A stretch of DNA of 64,000 nt from Candidatus Aldehydirespirator sp. Lineage in GTDB: Bacteria > Actinomycetota > Acidimicrobiia > Acidimicrobiales > Aldehydirespiratoraceae. Position 1 is the stretch's first letter, and the number at the start of each line of letters is the position of its first letter. Both the position numbers and the translations under genes were made by a program. Below the pieces are notes generated by a model that saw nothing but the letters and a program-made list of their open reading frames with translations, searched no databases and had not been told where the DNA came from. Where the stretch lies: positions 4,050,925 through 4,114,924 of the forward strand of contig OZ252146.1 of NCBI GenBank assembly GCA_965248735.1, read 5' to 3'. Positions 3,243 through 29,758 of this stretch are shown here, piece after piece.

Positions 3243-6127
3243 ACCACGAGGGTGACCATGCGGCCGGGCACGTAGAGCTTCTTGCGCAGCTGTTGGCCGC
3301 CCACGTGGGCAGCCACGTTCGGCTCGGCCAGCGCGGCGGCCACCGCGGTCTCCTCGTCGGCGTCCACCGCCAGCGTCACCCGGCCCCGCAGCTTGCCGTT
3401 CACCTGGACGGGCACCTCCACGGTATCGGACACCAGCAGTGCCGTATCGGCGGCGGGGAACTCGGTCTGCATCACCGAGCCGGCGTCGGCGCCGTGCACA
3501 CGCAGCCACATCTCCTCCGCGAAGTGCGGCACCAGCGGCGCCAGCATCCGCGCCAGCGTGTCGGCCACCTCCGAGGGCGCGCCCGTGCCCCGCCGGGTGA
3601 GCTCGTTGTTGAGCTCGGTCAGCTTGGCGATGGCGGTGTTGAACCGCAGACCCTCCATGTCGGAGCGCACCCCGTCGATGGTGCGGTGCAGCAACCGGCG
3701 CAGATCATCGTCAGCCGGTTCGTCGCTGATCCGCAGCTCGCCGGTCTCCTCGTCGACCACGTTGCGCCACACCCGCTGCAGCACCCGCTGCAAGCCCACC
3801 ACCGAGCGGGTCTCCCAAGGCCGTCCCTGGTCGATGGGACCCATGAACATCTCATAAAGCCGCAGGGTGTCGGCCCCGTAGGAGGCGTACATGTCGTCTG
3901 GGGTCACCGAGTTCTTGAGTGACTTGCCCATCTTCGCGAGTTCTCGGGTCACCGGCCGCCCCTGGTGGGTGAAACCCTCACGCAGCGAGCCCTCAACCTC
4001 ATCCGCGGGCACGTACACGCCTCTGGAGTCCTCGAAGGCGTAGGCCTGGATATAGCCCTGGTTGATGAGCCGCTTGAACGGCTCGGGCCCGCTCGCATGG
4101 CCGAGGTCGTAGAGCACCTTGTGCCAGAACCGGGCGTAGAGCAGGTGCAGCACGGCGTGCTCGACGCCGCCGACATACAGATCCACGCCGCCCACGCCGC
4201 CGGGGTCCGGATCGGCCATCCAGTACCGCTCGACGTCGGGGTCGACGAGAGCCTCGTCGTTGCGGGGATCGAGGTAGCGCAGGTAGTACCAGCACGAGCC
4301 GGCCCACTGGGGCATGGTGTTCAGCTCCCGGCGGTAGCGGCGCGGCCCGTCGCCGAGGTCGAGCTCGACGTTGACCCACTCCGATACCCGGCCCAAAGGC
4401 GGCTCCGGCTCGGAGTCCCGGGCCAGCGCCCTCGGCGCCCAGTCCGTCAGTTCGGGCAGTTCCAGGGGAAGGTGCTCTTCGGACAGCGCCACCGGGCCGA
4501 AGTCGTCGTGCACGATCGGGATCGGCTCGCCCCAATAGCGCTGGCGGCTGAACAGCCAGTCCCGCATCCTGTAGTTGACGGTGGGACGGCCGAGGCCCTC
4601 CTCCTGAAGGCGCTCAAGGATCAGTGCCTTCGATGCCTCCACGTCGAGGCCGTCGAGGAATTCGGAGTTGATCGACGGCCCGTCGCCCGTGTACGCCAGA
4701 TCAGCCGGGTGGTCCGCCGGGGGCTGCACCGTGCGGACTACGTCCAGCCCGAACGTCTCCGCGAACTCGCGGTCGCGCTGGTCCTCGCCGGGCACGCCCA
4801 TCACCGCGCCGGTGCCATAGCCCATGAGCACGTAGTCGGCGATGAACAGCGGCACCGGCTTCCACGTGAACGGCACGAGGGCGTGGGTGCCCAGGAACAC
4901 GCCGGTCTTCGAGTCGCCGCGGTCCGCGTCGCTCATCTCCGCGGACCGGGCCCGGTAGGCGGCCACCGCCTCCGCGGGTGTGGCCGCGCCCGAGGTCCAG
5001 CTCGCGGGAGTGCCGACGGGCCACTCCGGCGCGATCATCTCGTCCACGAGCGGATGCTCGGGGGCGAGCACCATGTAGGTGGTGCCGAACAGCGTGTCGG
5101 GCCGGGTGGTGAACACTTCGATGAGGAAGGTGAACCCGTCTCGGGCGAAGGGAAAGCAGACCCGGGCACCCTCGGAGCGGCCGATCCAGTTGCGCTGCAT
5201 GGTCTTGACCGACTCGGGCCAGTCCAAGCGGTCCAGGTCCTCCAGCAGGCGGTCGGCGTAGGCCGTGATGCGCATCATCCACTGCTTGAGCGGGCGCTTG
5301 AACACCTCGTGGTTGCCCCGCTCGGAGCGGCCCTGGGCGGTGACCTCCTCGTTGGCCAGCACCGTGCCCAGGGCCGGGCACCAGTTGACCGGGGCGTCGG
5401 CCACGTAGGCCAGGCGATGACCGTCGACCACGGCTCGCTGCTCGAACTCGCTCAGTTCGTCCCATGGCCGGCCGTCCGGGGACGGCCTTGCGCCGGACGA
5501 GAACTCGTCGATCAGCTCGGAGATGGGGCGGGCCCGTCCCGTCTCGGGATCGCACCAGGAGTTGAAGATCTGCAAGAAGATCCACTGGGTCCAGCGGTAG
5601 TAGTCGATGTCGGTGGTGGCGATGCTGCGCCGCTTGTCGTGGCCCAGCCCGAGCCGGTCGAGCTGGCGGCGCATGTTGGCGATGTTGGCCTCGGTGTTGA
5701 TGCGGGGGTGCTGGCCGGTCTGGCGGGCGTGCTCCTCGGCCGGCAGCCCGAAGGCGTCGAAGCCCATCGTGTACAGCACGTTGAAGCCGCACATCCGCTT
5801 GAAGCGGACGTACACGTCGGTGGCGATGTAGCCCAGCGGATGCCCCACGTGCAGCCCCGATCCCGACGGGTACGGGAACATGTCCATGATGAAGAGCTTG
5901 GGGCCGGCCGGGCCGCGGCCGGACGAGAGCCCCCCTGACGGGTTCGGCGTCTCGTAGATGCCGCTGTCGTCCCAGTGAGCCTGCCAGCGGGCCTCGATCT
6001 CAGCCGCGAGCGCCGCGTTGTAGCGGTGCGGGGGCGTGTCGGCCCCAGGGGCGGCGGGCATGACGCCCAAGGCTACGCGGCCCCCGGCCGGCCGCGTATC
6101 CGCTATCCGACGGCTCGTCAGAGCCAT
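3239..6127 (-). CDS. leuS: Leucine--tRNA ligase
   Basis: Class I aaRS HIGH region [16 protein letters not shown] and KMSKS region KMGKSLKN, with full-length LeuS-like architecture. Start ambiguous: ATG 6127 has GGAG 7 nt upstream; alternatives are 6145 and 6061. Confidence 0.95.
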
Positions 6128-14648: not shown

Positions 14649-16229
14649 TCAGAATCCGGCGATTGCGTCGAAGTATCGCTGCACGAGGGCACGCGCCGCG
14701 GGCGGAACCTGGCCCCGGTCCAGGCTCTTGACGGCCTCGTCGAGGTATGAGCCCAGCACCTCGCCGACCGGCACCCGCGCACCCGAGGTGCCGGTGATCC
14801 CCTGGCCCTGCCCGACGATCTCCGACTGGCCCGAGGTGGAGGCGCCTTCCACCCGCTGGATGTCGCTGGCACCGCCGGGAAGCCAGATGGTGGGGGCGCT
14901 GCGGTCGCCCGTCTCGGTGCTGTCGCCGCGGCCGCTCGCGGTGCCCTGGCCTCCCTGCCCCTGCCCGGTCCCGGAGCTCGCGCCTGTTACCGACCCCGAC
15001 GGCGACCCACTGCCCTGGCCCTGCCCTTGCCCCTGGCCCTGGCCCTGCCCTTGACCTTGACCCTGGCCCTGACCCTCTCCTTGGCCCTGACCCTGGCCCT
15101 GCCCTTGCCCCTGGCCCTGGCCGGGTTCCTGCGCCTGCTCGCCTGCGTCGCTCAGACGAGCCGCGGCGTCGCCCAGCAGGTCGACTGTGTTGGCCCTGGC
15201 CGTCTGGTCCAGCAGCGACGCCTCGCCGCTCCGCTGGGCCGATGCCGCCACGCCCAACGCCGCCGCAGCCCGGTCGAGGTCGCCCGATGCCAGCGCGGCG
15301 CCCGCGGATCCGAGTGCTCCGGCCGCGGCGGGGTTGCCTGCGGTCTGCGTGGCCGCTAGCGCCTCGAGGCGCCTGGCTATCGCAGCCCGATCCTGCTCCG
15401 ACAAGTCGCCGAGCGCCTCAGCGAGTGCCTCCAACTGGTTGGCCGCTCCGCCGAGACCCTCGGCGAGCGGCCGAGCTTCGAGGGACCTGTTCAACCCCTG
15501 CACGGCCGACTTCTCAGCCAGGAAATAGTCGGTGATGCCCGCTTCGAGCTCACTGCGAGCCTGTTCCAGCGCAGCCAGGCTCTCGTCCAGGGTGGCCTCC
15601 TCGAGCCGCTCCGCCAGACGTTCGAGCTGCTCGGCCAGCGCAGTCTGATCCGGTGACGCCAGCCCGTCGGCCGCAAGCGCCTCGGCCCGGGCCCGCAAGG
15701 CGTCGGCCGCCGCGGCCACCGCAGCCCGCTCCATGTCGGGGGCGCGGGCCGTCTCCGCGGCGGAGTCGGCGAGCAGCGCCAGGCCCAGCGCGGCCAGCGC
15801 CGCCGCGGCCGCAGCCCCCAGCGGGCGCCAGCCAACCCTCAGCGGAACGGCTCGGCGGACATCGCCGCGCCGGGCCGCGGCGTCGGCTCGGACCCGGATC
15901 TCGTCGCCGAACACGCCGACGAGGCCGGCGAACTGCAGCGATGTGGACAGCGCATCGTTGGTGTCCAACGAGCGGTCGGCCGAGCGGGCCGCCGCCTCGA
16001 TGCTCACCGGAAGGATGATGCTCCCCACGACCAACGCGATCAGAGCGCCCGCGCCGACGATCAAGGCCGCAGGTTCCAGCCATGCCCACGCGACGACTCG
16101 CGCCGACAGCACCAGCAGCAGTGCAATCCCGGCGGTGATCGGGGCCCAGCGCTCGAAGGCAGCCAGTGCCCACGCCGCTCTGATGCGTCGCCGCACCGCA
16201 ACGAGAAGGTCGGTCACCTGGTCCGACAC
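14649..16229 (-). CDS. Membrane protein with Ala-rich coiled-coil region and (GQ)n low-complexity tract
   Basis: GTG start. N-terminal TM helices (APITAGIALLLVLSARVV, ALIVGAGALIALVVGSIILPV), a long Ala/Leu/Glu-rich region, then about 19 GQ dipeptides. First gene of the MoxR operon. Confidence 0.6.
   Translation of the reverse strand: MSDQVTDLLVAVRRRIRAAWALAAFERWAPITAGIALLLVLSARVVAWAWLEPAALIVGAGALIALVVGSIILPVSIEAAARSADRSLDTNDALSTSLQFAGLVGVFGDEIRVRADAAARRGDVRRAVPLRVGWRPLGAAAAAALAALGLALLADSAAETARAPDMERAAVAAAADALRARAEALAADGLASPDQTALAEQLERLAERLEEATLDESLAALEQARSELEAGITDYFLAEKSAVQGLNRSLEARPLAEGLGGAANQLEALAEALGDLSEQDRAAIARRLEALAATQTAGNPAAAGALGSAGAALASGDLDRAAAALGVAASAQRSGEASLLDQTARANTVDLLGDAAARLSDAGEQAQEPGQGQGQGQGQGQGQGEGQGQGQGQGQGQGQGQGQGQGSGSPSGSVTGASSGTGQGQGGQGTASGRGDSTETGDRSAPTIWLPGGASDIQRVEGASTSGQSEIVGQGQGITGTSGARVPVGEVLGSYLDEAVKSLDRGQVPPAARALVQRYFDAIAGF
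15009..15123 (-). repeat. Hexanucleotide (CCCTGR/GGYCAG) tandem repeat encoding (GQ)n
   Basis: Direct reading: ~19 imperfect 6-nt units, in frame within the 14649-16229 CDS. Confidence 0.85.
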
Positions 16230-20606: not shown

Positions 20607-20750
20607 TTAGCAATGAATGTGATTGTGTCAGAGCGCGAGACCGTGCTACAGTCCGTTCCGTATCGTGGGACTGGTCCACAGTGCGGAACCGGCGTGTGGC
20701 TGACTTCCGTGGCACGGACCCCCGACCGCACAGAGGGAGGGCTGCGCCGG

Positions 20751-21503: not shown

Positions 21504-21640
21504 GGACCCGACGCAGCCTCCACCGACGCTAATCGGATGAACCCGACGCCACCGCCCCCACCGACGCTAATCGGATGAACCCGACGCCACCGCCCCCACC
21601 GACGCTAATCGGATGAACCCGACGCCACCGCCTCCACGGG
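21503..21640 (+). repeat. 38-nt tandem repeat (about 3.5 copies) spanning the start of the DUF1638 gene
   Basis: GGATGA recurs at 21535, 21573 and 21611 (period 38). The unit is CCGACGCTAATCGGATGAACCCGACGCCACCGCCCCCA. Each unit carries an ATG. Confidence 0.9.
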
Positions 21641-22245
21641 TGCTGATAGTCGGCTGCGGCGCGCTGGTACGCGAGCTGCAAGAGGTGGCGGCCCGCAACG
21701 GCAGCGGGCTTCTTGAGGTGGAGTGCCTGCCCGCCATCATGCACAACCGACCCGAGAAGATCCCCGACGCGGTACGCCGGAGGGTGCAGACGGCCAAGGC
21801 CAGCGGCGCCTTCCGCACGATCCTCGTGGGCTACATGGACTGCGGCACCGGCGGCCTCCTCGACCGGGTGTGCTCCGAAGAAGGCGTCGCGCGGCTTCCC
21901 GGCGCCCACTGCTACGAGCTCTACGCCGGCGCGGACGCCTTCGCGGGACTGCAGGAGGCCGAACCGGGCACCTTCTACCTCACCGACTATCTGGTGCGGC
22001 ACTTTGACCGCCTAATCATGAAGGGCCTGGGCATCTCAGAGCACCCGGAGCTGCTCGAGGTCTACTTCGGCAACTACACCCGGGTTGTCCACCTGGCCCA
22101 GACCGACGACGATCGTCTGGCCCGCTCCGCCGAGCAGGCCGCCGCCCGCCTGGGCCTCCGATGCGAGCGGATTCTCGTCGGCATCACCGGACTCGAGCGC
22201 CGGATCGTGGAGTTGGCCGGCGCCGCCGGTGCTGAACCGGCATGA
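21613..22245 (+). CDS. DUF1638 domain protein
   Basis: RVLIVGCGALVRELQEV, YMDCGTGGLLDRVC, PGAHCYELYAG and FYLTDYLVRHFDRL are typical of DUF1638, a family that accompanies corrinoid methyltransferase genes. An alternative GTG start lies at 21640. Confidence 0.75.
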   Translation: MNPTPPPPRVLIVGCGALVRELQEVAARNGSGLLEVECLPAIMHNRPEKIPDAVRRRVQTAKASGAFRTILVGYMDCGTGGLLDRVCSEEGVARLPGAHCYELYAGADAFAGLQEAEPGTFYLTDYLVRHFDRLIMKGLGISEHPELLEVYFGNYTRVVHLAQTDDDRLARSAEQAAARLGLRCERILVGITGLERRIVELAGAAGAEPA

Positions 22246-23540: not shown

Positions 23541-25517
23541 ATGCACGAAATGCACAGCGTGGTGTTCAACCCCTCGGGGATACGCGCCTCGGTGGCTGCC
23601 GGAGCCACCGTGCTGGACGCGGCCCGAGCCGGCGGGGTGGATCTCGACTCGGTTTGCGGCGGCCGCGGCCTGTGCGGGCGCTGCCAGGTGTCCCCCACCG
23701 CGGCCGACGTCCTGTCTGAGCCCGGCCCCACCGAGTTGCGCTACCGGGGCCGGCGCCCCCTGTCCGAGGAATGCCGCCTCGGCTGCCAGGCGGTGGTACT
23801 CGGCAATGCCGTCATCGACGTGCCCGCCGCCAGCCAGGTCCATCGGCCCGTGGTCCGCAAGTCGATCGACCTCGCAGAGGTGGTCATCGACCCGGTGGTC
23901 ACGCTGCACTATGTGGAGGTGCCCAAGATTGTGCTCGGATTCGAGGCAGCCGAGGTGGACCTGGTGGCCGAGGCCCTGTCCAACGATTGGGGCCTGGCCG
24001 ATGTCGACTTCGGTGTGCCGGTGCTGGCTCGCCTGCATTCGGCCATTGCCGCCGGGGAGGGGTCGGTCACGGTGGTTGTTCACGGTGGCCGCACCGTGCT
24101 CGACGTGCGGCCCGGATACTCCGACGGAGCCTGGGGGGTGGCCGTGGATGTGGGCTCCACCACCATCGCCGGCTATCTGCTCGAGCTCTCGTCGGGTGAG
24201 GTTGCCGCGGCCTCCGGTCGCATGAACCCGCAGATCCGCTTCGGCGAGGATCTCATGAGCCGGGTGTCGTATGTGATGATGAATCCCGGCGGCGAGGCGG
24301 AGCTCACCGCGGCTGTGCGCGGCGCTATCGACGAGTTGGTGGGCGAGCTGTGCGAGCACGCCGGAGTGGACCGCGGCCAGGTGCATGACCTGGTCGTGGT
24401 GGGCAATCCGATCATGCACCATCTTGTGCTGGGCTTGGATCCCACCCCGCTGGGGGCGGCGCCGTTCACGCTCGCCACGGCCACCGCGGTGCGGGGCGTC
24501 GCCGCTGAGATCGGGATCGGGCTGCCTTTTGCGGCCTTGTACGTCGGTCCCTGCATCGCCGGGCATGTCGGTGCGGACGCGGCCGCGGCCACTCTGGCCG
24601 AGGGCCCTCACCGGGTTGCCACCCCGATGCTGGTGGTCGACGTAGGCACCAACGCCGAGATCGTGCTGGGCGACGGGCATCGGGTGTTCGCCGCTTCAAG
24701 CCCGACCGGTCCAGCCTTCGAGGGCGCCCAGATCAGCTGCGGCCAGCGGGCGACCGCGGGCGCGGTGGAGCGGGTCCGGATCGACCGGGACACCTGGGAG
24801 CCCCGGTTCAAGGTCATCGGCTGCGACATGTGGTCCGATGAGCCGGGATTCTCCGAGGAGCTGGACCGGGCGGGGCTGGAGGTGTCGGGCCTGTGCGGCT
24901 CGGGCATCATCGACGTGATCGCCGAGATGTTCCTGGCCGGCGTCATGGATCGCCATGGCGTGGTCACGTCAGAGACCAGCCGGTCGCCGCGCATCGTGGC
25001 CGACGAGCGCACGTTCAGCTACGTGATTCAGTGGGAGCCGATCCGGCTGTCGATCACCCAGAACGACGTGCGGGCCGTCCAGCTGGCCAAGGCGGCGCTG
25101 CGGGCCGGAATCGATCTGCTTCGCGAGCATGGCGGTGTCGACGAGGTGCCCGACATCCGTCTGGCTGGAGCGTTCGGGGCCCACATCGACCCGGTGCGGG
25201 CCATGGTGCTCGGCCTGGTCCCCGACACGCCTACCGGCGGAGTGCGGGCCGCCGGGAACGCATCGGGCGTGGGAGCGGTGCGGATGCTGCTGTCGGGCGA
25301 GCAGCGCCTCGAGATCGAATGGCTGGTGCGGTCGGTCGTCAAAATCGAGACGGCCACGGAGCCCCGCTTCCAAGAGCTGTTCGTGGCCGCCATGGCGCTC
25401 CCCCACGACACCGACCCCACCCCGCATCTGGCCTCGATGGTCGACCTGCCCCAGGCTCCCGCGGCGAACCACGACCAAGGCAGGCGCCGGCACCGCCGAC
25501 CCCGTCCCGCCGCGTGA
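23541..25517 (+). CDS. Reductive activase of corrinoid enzymes (2Fe-2S ferredoxin domain + ASKHA ATPase domain, RamA/RACE-like)
   Basis: N-terminal plant-type ferredoxin motif CGGRGLCGRCQV. The large C-terminal region carries VDVGSTTIAGYL and VVDVGTNAEIVLG, which are ASKHA phosphate motifs. Confidence 0.85.
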   Translation: MHEMHSVVFNPSGIRASVAAGATVLDAARAGGVDLDSVCGGRGLCGRCQVSPTAADVLSEPGPTELRYRGRRPLSEECRLGCQAVVLGNAVIDVPAASQVHRPVVRKSIDLAEVVIDPVVTLHYVEVPKIVLGFEAAEVDLVAEALSNDWGLADVDFGVPVLARLHSAIAAGEGSVTVVVHGGRTVLDVRPGYSDGAWGVAVDVGSTTIAGYLLELSSGEVAAASGRMNPQIRFGEDLMSRVSYVMMNPGGEAELTAAVRGAIDELVGELCEHAGVDRGQVHDLVVVGNPIMHHLVLGLDPTPLGAAPFTLATATAVRGVAAEIGIGLPFAALYVGPCIAGHVGADAAAATLAEGPHRVATPMLVVDVGTNAEIVLGDGHRVFAASSPTGPAFEGAQISCGQRATAGAVERVRIDRDTWEPRFKVIGCDMWSDEPGFSEELDRAGLEVSGLCGSGIIDVIAEMFLAGVMDRHGVVTSETSRSPRIVADERTFSYVIQWEPIRLSITQNDVRAVQLAKAALRAGIDLLREHGGVDEVPDIRLAGAFGAHIDPVRAMVLGLVPDTPTGGVRAAGNASGVGAVRMLLSGEQRLEIEWLVRSVVKIETATEPRFQELFVAAMALPHDTDPTPHLASMVDLPQAPAANHDQGRRRHRRPRPAA

Positions 25518-25567
25518 ATGTTAGTAGAAACCTGGGATAATCCTAGAAAAGTGCTATCAAATCCGGA

Positions 25568-25625
25568 ATGATGAACGAGGAAGCATGAACGAGGAACCAT
25601 GAACGAGGAACCATGAGCGAGGCAC
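25568..25625 (+). repeat. 14-nt tandem repeat (CATGAACGAGGAAC, 4 units) running into the MttB-family start codon
   Basis: ATGs at 25571, 25585, 25599 and 25613 (period 14). Each unit contains GAGGAA plus ATG. Confidence 0.9.
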
Positions 25626-27145
25626 GAGGGCGCAGAGGCGGAGGACGAGCGGGTCGGCGGGCCGCGAGGGCCGCATCAGTGGAGACGGCGCCGTACCTGG
25701 TCCGCCGGCAGCCGCCGGTGGACATACTCGACGTCGAGGGCTTGGAGCAGATCGAGCGCAACGCCGAGACAATCCTGTCGGAGGTCGGCATCGCCTTCCA
25801 GGACTTCCCCGAAGCCTTGGAGCTCTGGCGCGCCGCGGGCGCGGACATTGACGGGGAGCTGGTGCGGTTCCCGCCCGGCCTGTGCCGCCAGATCGTGCAG
25901 GACGACGCCCCCGCCGTCTACACCCAGCACGCCCGCAACCCGGCCCGCAGCGTCCAGGTGGGCGGCGACGCCACCGTGTTCGCCCCCAACTACGGCTCGC
26001 CGTTCGTCATGGACCTGGACCGGGGCCGCCGCTACGCCACGCTGGAGGACTTCTGCAACGTGGTGAAGCTCGCCTACGTGCTGCCGCAGCTGCACCACAG
26101 CGGGGGCACGGTGTGCGAGCCGGTGGATGTGCCGGTGAACAAGCGCCACCTCGACATGGTGTACACCCACCTGCGCTACAGCGACAAGCCGTTCATGGGC
26201 TCGGTGACCGCCGCCGAGCGGGCCGCCGACTCCGTCGAGATGGCCCGCATCGGCTTCGGCGGCGACCTGGCCGACCGCACCGTGATGACGTCGCTGATCA
26301 ACGCATCCTCCCCGATGCGCTGGGACGCCACCATGCTGGGCGCAGCCACCACATACGCCCGGGCCAACCAGGCCTGCATCATCAGCCCGTTCATCCTGGC
26401 CGGGGCGATGTCGCCGGTGACGGTGGCCGGACTGGCCGCGCAGGCCCTGGCCGAGGCGCTGTCGGGCATGGCCTACCTGCAGCTGGTCCGCCCCGGGGCC
26501 CCAGTTGTGTTCGGCACGTTCGCCTCGTCGATGTCCATGGCCACCGGGGCACCAACCTTCGGCACGCCCGAAGCCGGCCAGGCCATCTACGTGATGGCGT
26601 CGCTGGCCCGCCGGGTGGGGGTGCCATTCCGATCCGGCGGGCAGTTCACGTCCTCGAAGCTGCCCGACGCGCAGGCTGCCTACGAGTCGGCCCACACCCT
26701 GCTGCCCACCATGCAGGCGGGGGTGAACTTCGTGCTGCACGCCGCGGGCTGGCAGGAGGGCGGCCTGGCCCTGGGCTACGAGAAGCTGATCCTGGACGCC
26801 GACCAACTCGGCGCCATGGAGGTCTGGGCCCGGGGGGTGGACACCAGCGACAACGGCCAGGCCATGGAGGCGTTCCGCACCAACGCCCACGGCGACCATT
26901 TTCTGGGCAACCCCCACACGCTGGCCAATTTCGAGAGCGCCTTCTGGCGGTCAGAAATCTCCGACGCGGCCAGTTACGAGCAGTGGACCGAGGAGGGCTC
27001 GCTGTCGGCGGCCCAGCGGGCCAACGCCCGCTGGAAGCAGTTGTTGGCCGACTACGAGCCGCCCCCCGTCGACGACGCGGTGGATGCCGAGCTGCTCGAC
27101 TACATGGCTCGACGCAAGGCCGAGATGCCCGACGAGATCGGCTGA
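25613..27145 (+). CDS. MttB-superfamily methyltransferase (non-pyrrolysine; quaternary amine/betaine-type substrate likely)
   Basis: 510 aa with no in-frame TAG. The N-terminal region DILDVEGLEQIERNAETILSEVGIAFQDFPEALELWRAAGADI is typical of the trimethylamine methyltransferase family. Clustered with the corrinoid protein, pterin methyltransferase and activase. Confidence 0.9.
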   Translation: MSEARGRRGGGRAGRRAARAASVETAPYLVRRQPPVDILDVEGLEQIERNAETILSEVGIAFQDFPEALELWRAAGADIDGELVRFPPGLCRQIVQDDAPAVYTQHARNPARSVQVGGDATVFAPNYGSPFVMDLDRGRRYATLEDFCNVVKLAYVLPQLHHSGGTVCEPVDVPVNKRHLDMVYTHLRYSDKPFMGSVTAAERAADSVEMARIGFGGDLADRTVMTSLINASSPMRWDATMLGAATTYARANQACIISPFILAGAMSPVTVAGLAAQALAEALSGMAYLQLVRPGAPVVFGTFASSMSMATGAPTFGTPEAGQAIYVMASLARRVGVPFRSGGQFTSSKLPDAQAAYESAHTLLPTMQAGVNFVLHAAGWQEGGLALGYEKLILDADQLGAMEVWARGVDTSDNGQAMEAFRTNAHGDHFLGNPHTLANFESAFWRSEISDAASYEQWTEEGSLSAAQRANARWKQLLADYEPPPVDDAVDAELLDYMARRKAEMPDEIG

Positions 27146-27610: not shown

Positions 27611-28689
27611 CTAGTGGCAACTCCCTGAGCTACGACCGTCGACGGCGGAGTGGTGGCAGGCCACGGCCGCCTCCATCGACGCCGCTACCGCCGGCTGGCC
27701 CTGCGGGCCTCGCAGATCAGGTTCCTGTTGGCTGCAGATCTCCGTAGCCATCGGACAACGGGGCGCGAAACTGCATCCCGGCGCGGCACCGACCGGCACG
27801 GGTGGCGAGCCGGCAATGGGCGTGAGCCTGGTGGCAGCCCTGTCCAGCCGGGGCACGGCGGCGAGCAGACCGGCCGTGTAGGGGTGACTGGCCCGGTGGT
27901 ACACGTCATGCACGTCGCCCCGCTCCACGCAGTGCCCGGCGTACATCACTATGACCCGGTCGGCCGCGCCTGCGACCACGCCGAGATCATGGCTGATGAT
28001 CATCATGGCTCCGGACATCCGCTGCCTCACTTCCGACAGGACCTCCAGCACCTGGGCCTGCACGGTCGCGTCCAGAGCGGTGGTCGGCTCGTCTGCGATG
28101 AGCACAACCGGGTCCAGCGCTACGCCCATGGCGATCATGACTCGCTGGCGCATCCCGCCCGACAGCTCGTGGGGATAGCAGCGGGCCCGCCGGCATCGGG
28201 GATGCCGACGCGCTCGAGCAGATCCGCGGCCCGAAGCCTGGCCTCTGTCTTGCGCAGCGGCCGATGGGCCCTGATCATCTCGGCGATCTGGTCCCCCACC
28301 CGCTGCACCGGGTTCAGAGCGGTGAGTGGGTCCTGGAAGATCATCGCGATCTCTGCGCCCCGCGCCCGGCGTCGGCGCAGCGGAGAGGCCGCCAGGAGGT
28401 CCTCGCCCGCCAGCCGCACCTCCCCGCCCGCGATCCGAGCCCGGCCCGGCAGCAGGCCGAGGATCGACAGGGCCAGCATCGTCTTGCCGCACCCGGACTC
28501 GCCGACAACGGCCAGCACCTCGCCGCCTAACAGGTCGAGGCTGATGTCGTTGACCGCGACGATGGTGCCTTCGTCGGTGTCGATCTCGGTGCGAAGGTTC
28601 CGGACCTGTAACAGCGGCTCACGACCAGCCGCGGCCGCCGCGTCGCCTCCGGTCGGCGGGGTGGGGGGTCCGAGCGCGCCGTCAGTCAT
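27611..28689 (-). pseudogene. Oligopeptide/dipeptide ABC transporter ATPase (DppD/OppD-like), frameshifted
   Basis: The N-terminal half is in one frame (Walker A GESGCGKT ... [10 protein letters not shown]). The C-terminal half is in another ([32 protein letters not shown]). The frames switch at about 28186-28195, consistent with a 1-nt indel. Confidence 0.75.
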
Positions 28690-29758
28690 CGGTGGTCCTG
28701 GGTCGGATCGAGAGAGTCGCGCAGGCCATCGCCGATGAAGTTCACGCACAGCACGGTGACGACGATGGCCAGCCCCGGAGCCCATACCAGCCACGGCGCA
28801 GTACTGACGAACCCCTCATTGCCGCCCAGCATGTTGCCCCACGTCGCCGTGCGGGTGGCGCTGACGCCGAGGCCTAGGAAGCTGAGGGGCGACTCGGCCA
28901 GGATGGCGGCTGCCACGCTGAGCGACACCGCCACCATGATCTCGCCAGCCAGGTTCGGCAGCAGATGGCGGACGATGATCCTGCGATTGGGAACCCCCAG
29001 CGCCCTAGCCGCCTCCACGAACTCGCGCTCCTTCAGGGCCAGCACCTTGCCCCGCACGATCCGTGCCGGGACCATCCATGTGATGCCAGCCAGAACCACC
29101 ACGACCTCCCAGACCCCGTCGCCGAGAATCCGCGCCGCGATGACCACCACCATCAGCCCGGGAAGCGCCAGCATGGTGTCAGCAAAGCGCATCAGCGCCG
29201 ACTCGACCCATCGCCCGTAGTAGCCGGACACGAGTCCGACGAAGGTCCCCACCACTCCGCTGATCAACGCCACCGCCCCACCGACCAGCAGCGAGACCCG
29301 GCCTCCGTAGAGGACCCGGCGGTGGCCCCGTGATCGATCAGCGAGCCGCGGCGGACCGCCGACAGCGTGCCGATGGTGAGACCCGCACCCAGCGACAGCA
29401 CCACCGCCGCAGACACCAGCAGCGCCGCAGACACCAGCAGCGCCGCAGACACCAGCAGCAACGTGTTGGCCATGGCCCTCTCCACGAAGGGCCACACGTC
29501 CTGGCCGTTGCGGACCAGCGACGTGCCGAAGTCACCCGTCGCGAGGTTGCCCAGCCACCTCAGGTAGCGCACACCGAAGGAGTCGTTGAGGCCCAGGGAC
29601 TCGGTGTAGGCCCGCCGGGCCTCCGCGCTGATGCGAGGGTTGACCGCAATCTGGGCTGCGGGACTGGAGATCTTGCCCGCGGCCCAGAAGGTGGCCAGCG
29701 AGATGAGCAGCAGAATCGGCGCCATGACGGCCAGACGCCGGACCGCGTAGCGGATCAT
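28686..29758 (-). pseudogene. Remnant of DppB-type and DppC-type permease genes, separated by a deletion and/or frameshift
   Basis: ORF 29264-29758 starts like DppB (MIRYAVRRLAVMAPILLLISLATF ... GDFGTSL) and then degenerates. ORF 28686-29495 is only the C-terminal ~200 aa of a DppC-like permease (ALPGLMVVV, FVEAARALG, SFLGLG). The missing parts imply loss of several hundred bp. Confidence 0.65.
29405..29458 (-). repeat. 18-nt tandem triplication (GCCGCAGACACCAGCAGC x3)
   Basis: Direct reading. Encodes LLVSAA x3 inside the DppB-like fragment. Confidence 0.9.

Follow-up and report, generated by a model that had tools for sequence, protein, structure and literature searches.

When a bacterial gene is preceded by several copies of its own start, the arrangement could be a device that feeds ribosomes into the gene or a duplication that the gene simply survives. 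This question arises at the mttB start of Candidatus Aldehydirespirator sp., where a 14-nt tandem repeat builds three very short open reading frames (ORFs) that overlap one another and then the gene. The locus was analysed within a 64,000-nt stretch of assembly GCA_965248735.1 (OZ252146.1, positions 4,050,925-4,114,924 of the forward strand), which we call the window and whose numbering is used throughout. An earlier description made from the letters alone, here the sequence-only reading, had taken the array to be functional, as a translational re-initiation ladder, in ribosome loading or in regulation.

Operon context of mttB

The mttB gene (25613-27145, forward strand) is intact and encodes a 510-aa protein of the MttB family (trimethylamine methyltransferase family) that matches PF06253 (MTTB) with E = 8.6e-218, model positions 1-500 aligning with residues 8-506. 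Read from ATG 25613, the product begins MSEARGRRGGG, and this ATG is the sole in-frame start 3' of an in-frame stop at 25586-25588. The gene belongs to a corrinoid methyltransferase operon with genes for a B12-binding protein, a DUF1638 protein (21613-22245, forward strand), a PF13769 protein, a pterin-binding methyltransferase and, 5' of mttB, a RACo-type corrinoid reductive activase (23541-25517, forward strand; identified by its Pfam RACo domains). Four-base stop/start overlaps occur elsewhere in the operon, as ATGA between the DUF1638 and PF13769 genes and as GTGA between the PF13769 and pterin methyltransferase genes. The 14-nt array sits between two co-directional genes, RACo (stop at 25517) and mttB (start at 25613).

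Two other features of the neighbourhood deserve mention. At the operon head, 5' of the gene for the B12-binding protein, lies a near-invariant 35-nt inverted repeat or hairpin (GTTCCGTATCGTGGGACTGGTCCACAGTGCGGAAC, 20655-20689) that is present in one copy in each of 33 related loci; its fold has z = -3.6 against shuffles but shows no covariation and no Rfam match, and it could be an operator or an RNA element. On the minus strand at 27611-29758, genes of an oligopeptide-type ABC transporter that are intact beside mttB in L153-L157 (L numbers denote the related loci introduced below) are fragmented in the window. The ATPase is broken into two overlapping ORFs, and the permease is cut down to its N-terminal domain and contains an 18-nt repeat of 3.7 copies at 29394-29459; these genes are likely pseudogenes.

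Anatomy of the 14-nt array

The array was delineated on the forward strand at 25571-25622 by TRF (period 14, 3.7 copies, 94% matches, score 90), by a pattern search and by sequence alignment (A1); with its flanks, the stretch 25560-25630 reads ggaATGATGAACGAGGAAGCATGAACGAGGAACCATGAACGAGGAACCATGAGCGAGGCACGAGG. Upstream unit 1 (ATGAACGAGGAAGC, 25571-25584) is one base off units 2 and 3 (25585-25598 and 25599-25612), which are both ATGAACGAGGAACC and thus identical to each other. The sequence-only reading had counted four repeats; three upstream units are present, but the fourth is the gene's own start (ATGAGCGAGGCACG, 25613-25626), which matches them at 11 of 14 positions. When up to two mismatches were allowed, ATGAACGAGGAACC had three matches in the 64-kb window, all of them inside the array, against a mean of 0.3 in shuffled sequence.

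TRF and the translations bore out the sequence and mini-ORF architecture that had been described. On the forward strand, mini-ORF 1 (MMNEEA, 25568-25588), mini-ORF 2 (MNEEP, 25585-25602) and mini-ORF 3 (MNEEP, 25599-25616) end in TGA codons that overlap the ATGs at 25585, 25599 and 25613, respectively; the stop/start overlap is ATGA at every junction, and the last ATGA opens mttB. Because the unit includes ATGA, leaves a remainder of 2 when its length is divided by 3 and is free of in-frame stops, the chain forms automatically, and the chaining is an inevitable outcome of the unit rather than a separate coincidence. The sequence-only reading also gave each unit a Shine-Dalgarno-like GAGGAA and an ATG. 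Duplexes with the 3' end of 16S rRNA have an equal calculated energy of -5.9 kcal/mol for the ATGs at 25585 (mini-ORF 2, with GAGG 4 nt 5' of the ATG), 25599 and 25613, because GAGG sits within the unit in the window's lineage. The match is weak only for the first ATG pair, 25568 and 25571, of mini-ORF 1 (-1.6 and -2.6 kcal/mol).

An AT-rich stretch had been noted before the array, and indeed the GC fraction is 0.40-0.47 across 25520-25609 as against about 0.70 in the flanks. The leader is also purine-rich, in a genome of 70% GC, and is less structured than its shuffles (z = +1.3). Within the AT-rich stretch, an imperfect palindrome (CTGGGATAATCCTAG, 25532-25546, no strand assigned) contains an extended -10-like TGgGATAAT and is conserved amid diverging flanks; it is kept in about ten relatives (L001-L003, L157, L158, L012, L017 and L019 among them) and is perfect, as CTGGGATAATCCCAG, in L001 and L002. 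A consensus scan for promoters and terminators gave no match at the mttB spacer, this palindrome included; the promoter call is drawn from the conserved TGgGATAAT palindrome only, which is probably a promoter and/or operator of mttB.

The position of the repeats directly 3' of this promoter- or operator-like palindrome raises the prospect that they act as DNA, the direct repeats being binding sites for a transcription factor or another DNA-binding protein. We find this highly improbable, as the unit copies the gene's own first 14 nt, its multiplicity is not conserved, a spacing of 14 bp is out of step with the helical repeat, and the conserved candidate operator is the palindrome at 25532-25546 rather than the repeats.

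The ladder is private to one genome

The mttB start was compared across 159 syntenic loci, gathered by scans of genome and metagenome collections and by exact-protein look-ups. These loci belong to sponge-associated Acidimicrobiia, namely Candidatus Aldehydirespirator, Poriferisocius and relatives, and most of them encode an MttB with 57-97% identity to that of the window. An exact-protein look-up for the window's MttB returned no match, no relative exceeded 94% identity in the metagenome scan, and the best in a large protein search reached 97%. Among the 159 loci, the three-ORF ladder is private to the window's genome.

In the closest group (92-97% MttB identity) most genomes carry one upstream unit, in which a 5-codon ORF begins at -14 and its TGA overlaps the mttB start; mini-ORF 3 is the ortholog of this single upstream ORF. 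The codon at -14 is ATG in most of these genomes and GTG in L012, L016, L020, L044 and L159, while L001 has ACG at -14 yet retains an in-frame ATG at -17. L001-L003 and L157, whose proteins are 95-96% identical to the window's, have a single upstream unit, and alignment A1 of the window with these four loci shows a clean 28-nt insertion equal to two units. One extra unit is found in L158, which with the gene start counted has about three units, compared with four in the window and two in most relatives. Mis-assembly can affect tandem repeats, and an assembly or sequencing artefact is a further account of the array; however, at 56 nt it is far shorter than the reads, its units are not all identical, and homologous arrays of two and three units occur in independent assemblies, which leaves an artefact with scarcely any probability.

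L153-L156, with MttB 96-97% identical to the window's, carry a 15-nt version of the repeat (ATGAGCGAGGAAACC followed directly by ATGAGCGAG) and no upstream ORF. Here the upstream copy is in frame, the protein reads MSEETMSET from its first residue, and gene callers use the upstream start, which speaks for the upstream copy being able to serve as a start; in L154 and L155 the downstream start has changed to GTG. The 14-nt and 15-nt versions differ by one A in an A-run. Together with the 2, about 3 and 4 units among species-level relatives, this single-base difference is what might be expected of a contingency (phase-variable) locus, in which gain or loss of units, or a 1-nt slip in GGAA(A)CC, would switch MttB expression or its N-terminus. 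Such a locus is nevertheless very unlikely, for whole-unit changes preserve the chain by construction and hence provide no on/off frame switch, the unit is longer than classical simple-sequence contingency repeats, and the comparison is limited to relatives of at most 97% identity, that is, to differences between species.

Elsewhere among the relatives, the junction differs in other ways. The -14 start codon has been lost in L043, which relies on a canonical AGGAG and lacks any upstream ORF with ATGA coupling, and in L083, where only a longer, 18-codon ATGA-coupled upstream ORF is left. The 82-84% group has AGGAG and no upstream ORF, and the RACo stop overlaps the mttB ATG directly (cagcgATGA). 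In L025, L036 and L039 the RACo stop overlaps a GTG start of mttB (caGTGA), and repeats that stay in frame extend the MttB N-terminus (units of 30 nt x 7.2 with 100% identity, of 15 nt x 6 and of 18 nt x 2); in L025 and L036 every N-terminal repeat unit includes NTGAGCGAACC. A 3-codon stretch, GTGAACCGATGA, in the 86-88% group resembles an upstream ORF but is more simply an AGGTGA ribosome-binding motif, and we did not count it as evidence.

From these sequences we conclude that ATGA coupling is the ancestral arrangement at the mttB start and that the ladder is young and lineage-private. The sequence-only reading had proposed to compare the unit number and the ATGA overlaps in relatives, and had named absence of the array from close relatives with an intact MttB homolog as a finding against it. 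As to the overlap, the junction is old and widely kept, whether as a 5-codon upstream ORF or as an overlap with the RACo stop, apart from the loss of the -14 start in L043 and L083. Conservation of the ladder itself is contradicted: close relatives lack the multi-unit ladder, having either one upstream unit (L001-L003 and L157) or the in-frame version (L153-L156).

The in-frame repeats that lengthen N-termini are perfect or nearly so and are found in different species. In MttB (L025 5734-5949 and L036 about 5806-5965) they are 30 nt x 7.2, which encodes SENLSEPKTQ seven times, and 15 nt x 6, and in DUF1638 (L032 923-1036 and L153 978-1031) they are 36 nt x 3.2 and 27 nt x 2; gene callers are inconsistent about the starts of both sets of repeat-extended N-termini.

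Is the single upstream ORF under selection?

If the ladder is young, the older single ORF might still be maintained for a reason. Major-allele frequencies are 0.54-0.96 at positions -14 to -1 as against 0.3-0.5 for most of -40 to -15, and the -14 start with its NTGA junction persists beside two unrelated types of intergenic sequence. As a neutral benchmark, four-fold sites of mttB are 0.64-0.89 identical among sub-groups, from which a rough star-tree estimate predicts that about 8 of 12 sub-group representatives would keep the -14 start; 10 of the 12 do. By this measure retention of the -14 start does not clearly exceed the neutral expectation, and the case for purifying selection on the single upstream ORF is suggestive, not decisive.

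The calculated Shine-Dalgarno energies point in a similar direction in some relatives. The main AUG is a poor match (-2.2 to -3.0 kcal/mol) in the L004 group and in most of the L012 group, where the upstream AUG is a better one, mostly -4.6 to -6.6 kcal/mol with L017 and L019 as exceptions; these values would fit ribosome entry at the upstream ORF followed by hand-over to mttB. The window's main AUG has its own GAGG (-5.9 kcal/mol), and therefore coupling is not needed there.

The peptides encoded by the upstream ORF vary among relatives (MNEAP, MNEPA, MSEHR, VRVAS, VDEAQ, MSEAL, VNKEP and others). This bears on a different role for the ORF, namely that of a regulatory leader peptide on which a stalled ribosome would control mttB by attenuation or by unmasking the start site. 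Several versions of the mini-ORF end in Pro-UGA, a slow termination context in E. coli, as such a role might require. However, besides the variable peptides, the consensus scan found no terminator-like site, the leader has no stable structure (the fold z of +1.3 given above), and Rfam at gathering thresholds gave no match anywhere in the window, so neither a leader-peptide attenuator nor a known RNA family is recognizable. Non-conservation of peptide and structure already largely refutes the leader-peptide reading, to which we assign almost no weight.

Start-codon duplications follow a period rule

The 14-nt array is one of two in the operon. A 38-nt tandem array (21516-21637, forward strand; TRF 3.2 copies, 97% match) lies between the corrinoid-protein (B12-binding) gene and DUF1638, and its translations contain two 13-aa mini-ORFs, both MNPTPPPPPTLIG (21537-21578 and 21575-21616, forward strand), that are ATGA-chained into the DUF1638 gene at 21613. 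The 38-nt unit is single-copy in L001 and L003, a CCTCCAC microhomology flanks the array, and in most relatives the stop of the corrinoid-protein gene overlaps the DUF1638 ATG directly. At the RACo start, a 9-nt in-frame duplication (ATGCACGAA followed by ATGCAC, 23541-23555, forward strand) was read from the sequence, and the RACo product has 658 aa in the window and in L159 versus 655 aa in L153, L154, L157 and L158. The same start is GACATGCAC in three copies in L008 and L009. An array of 35 nt x 3.2 is also seen at the RACo start of L005.

These cases belong to a wider pattern. Tandem repeats are frequent at the gene junctions of these genomes, where TRF at a score of at least 60 reported 110 in 1.49 Mb. 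Duplications that take in a start codon recur at mttB, DUF1638, RACo and the pterin methyltransferase gene, and we count about 16 independent events of this kind. (Genes in the window were called by GC3, a crude procedure that leaves gaps and served only to place the repeats.) Periods of 0 mod 3 (15, 30, 18, 21, 27, 36, 69, 9, 54, 57 and 45) and of 2 mod 3 (14, 38, 35, 47 and 167) both occur among the start-codon duplications. No period of 1 mod 3 was found in these approximately 16 events, for which equal thirds would give a probability of (2/3)^16, or about 0.0015; the repeats in the 3' spacer after mttB include all three period classes. Chains coupled through NTGA arose independently in L072 (167 nt, at RACo) and in L022 (47 nt, at the pterin methyltransferase gene).

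Such a pattern would be expected if harmful duplications are filtered out, and not if ladders are selected. On the simplest reading, duplications by slippage are frequent, and at a gene start they persist only when the added start is in frame or opens a reading frame that ends no later than the real start; with a period of 1 mod 3, ribosomes would be pushed through the true start out of frame. The sequence-only reading had correctly seen that the same architecture occurs twice in the operon, built from unrelated repeats of 14 and 38 nt, and had taken this recurrence as an argument for function. That argument does not carry, since chaining is automatic whenever a duplication of 2 mod 3 spans an ATGA start.

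Other repeats in these sequences appear to be of different kinds. An element of about 45 nt, GGCCGTGGCCCGAGCGGCCCGTGAGCGCAGCGAACAAGAGCGGGAA, occurs in either orientation in several spacers, often within larger tandem repeats with units of 44-92 nt (L004 about 1810-1960, L007 7959-8166, L014 7502-7631, L020 791-1073 and L044 687-978), and may be a dispersed REP- or MITE-like element. In the window, the hexamer GCCCTG is repeated 18.5 times (79% match) at 15012-15122 inside a long minus-strand ORF (about 14649-16229), with a second, degenerate repeat at 15776-15833.

A model for the origin of the array

The clean 28-nt insertion, the identity of units 2 and 3 and the absence of the 14-mer elsewhere in the window establish a recent, local origin of the additional units. 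We think it probable that the array grew recently, by slippage, from an older single copy and that the ladder has been tolerated since ribosomes still reach the real start. The older copy would itself be a 14-nt duplication of the mttB translation-initiation region, made up of a GAGG motif for ribosome binding, the ATG and the first three codons, and slipped-strand expansion would have multiplied it. As the 14-nt unit (2 mod 3) includes ATGA, each copy is a complete small cistron, with a GAGG and a start codon of its own, four or five sense codons and a closing TGA that overlaps the ATG of the following copy or gene. A ribosome that initiates on any unit would read five codons and stop on the following AUG, from which it would re-initiate, and this hand-down would end at the true mttB AUG with no out-of-frame run into the gene. 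It is presumably because ribosomes are passed down in this way that the expansion was tolerated.

Published work is in keeping with this route. In E. coli termination-reinitiation takes no more of an upstream gene than its last 15 nt (PMC10666635), although it requires overlaps or very short gaps (PMC10666635, PMC6728339), and in M. tuberculosis expression of PPE2 requires an AUGA-coupled upstream ORF (PMC11260477). The expansion may mildly change mttB output: three modules may raise it through greater capture of ribosomes, or may lower it through competition and imperfect re-initiation. Very short ORFs, as the lambda bar minigenes illustrate, favour drop-off of peptidyl-tRNA.

The main competitor of a tolerated expansion is a ladder made by selection, a re-initiation or ribosome-loading pad in which three GAGG-AUG modules would widen ribosome capture and funnel ribosomes to mttB, the copy number being tuned by selection. 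The equal Shine-Dalgarno strength of the ATGs at 25585, 25599 and 25613, a purine-rich leader less structured than its shuffles, two arrays of the same logic within one operon and the independent expansion in L158 can all be cited in its favour. Yet the copy number is not conserved, the nearest relatives having one upstream unit, the 15-nt in-frame version or none, and the chain follows automatically from a period of 2 mod 3. Moreover, the size of the ribosome footprint limits the 42-nt array to about one initiating ribosome at a time, and therefore the upstream starts take ribosomes from the true start as much as they supply it. The fragmented ABC transporter genes nearby, in turn, fit a genome that is accumulating unselected changes. 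On balance a selected ladder is unlikely, and we judge the array more likely to be a survivable by-product than a selected device.

Relation to known systems

The closest analogue that we can name is the mycobacterial MIRU-VNTR, for example that of the senX3-regX3 spacer, a likeness of arrangement. The ORF within a MIRU repeat is coupled to the gene that follows at -4 nt (PMC12548453), and strains differ in carrying three 77-bp units or two 77-bp units and one of 53 bp (PMC4213456). As in MIRUs, both the 14-nt and the 38-nt arrays consist of tandem units at a junction of co-directional actinobacterial operon genes, the stop of every unit's ORF overlaps the next start (-4 nt), and copy number varies, here between species and in MIRUs between strains; by our own arithmetic, 77 and 53 are both 2 mod 3, as are 14 and 38. 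In contrast to MIRUs, which are dispersed, related elements of 40-100 bp at many loci and are thought to be mobile, the window's 14-nt and 38-nt units are unrelated to each other, and each is copied from the start of its own gene at its own locus only. Indeed, a search of the 64 kb and the syntenic loci found the 14-mer only in the array, which is therefore not a member of a dispersed family. Our literature search on start-codon tandem duplications in bacteria found nothing relevant beyond MIRUs.

A second likeness is to uPPE2-PPE2 and other overlapping pairs, in which a short, out-of-frame upstream ORF ends in a UGA that overlaps the main AUG, the NUGA configuration also seen here. The window differs from such pairs in that its upstream ORF has only 5 codons and is iterated three times, and in that the main AUG has its own GAGG (-5.9 kcal/mol); in the L004 and L012 groups, by contrast, the main AUG has a weak motif of -2.2 to -3.0 kcal/mol. 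Upstream ORF remnants as short as 15 nt are enough for re-initiation in E. coli (PMC11260477, PMC10666635, PMC6728339).

The array also invites comparison with engineered constructs in which a short leader ORF ends in a stop/start overlap and includes the motif at which ribosomes bind for the next ORF. Leader cistrons of this design are known as 'bicistronic design'. They are used to 'deliver' ribosomes to a gene of interest (PMC12548453). The window's array differs in being natural, repeated and born of duplication, and an insulating role is not implied.

Implications

We conclude that the array is a tandem repeat of a translation start, generated locally, in which coupling is preserved. The architecture that had been described stands, and its reading as a functional ladder is supported only in part. 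The array is of interest chiefly for the recurrent pattern and the period rule, and less for itself. A gene start within a translationally coupled operon can be duplicated harmlessly, the survivors being duplications whose upstream start is in frame or whose upstream ORF stops on the true start, and this gives a simple rule for start-spanning repeats: a period of 0 or 2 mod 3, never 1. The findings further suggest that coupled arrays like those of MIRUs can form in place, with no mobile element involved. They also call for caution in annotation, as gene callers choose different repeat copies in different genomes and report products of 510 or 515 aa and longer.

A bolder proposal is that duplication of start regions is a systematic and selectable means of tuning genes in the coupled operons of sponge-associated Acidimicrobiia, a non-mobile counterpart of MIRUs in which periods of 2 mod 3 would yield re-initiation ladders, periods of 0 mod 3 would yield N-terminal repeat tails, and each cistron would have its output set by the copy number. 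We offer this as a speculation that is unlikely to be correct. Should copy number prove to alter MttB output, however, the array would be a compact natural model for re-initiation over 5-codon ORFs.
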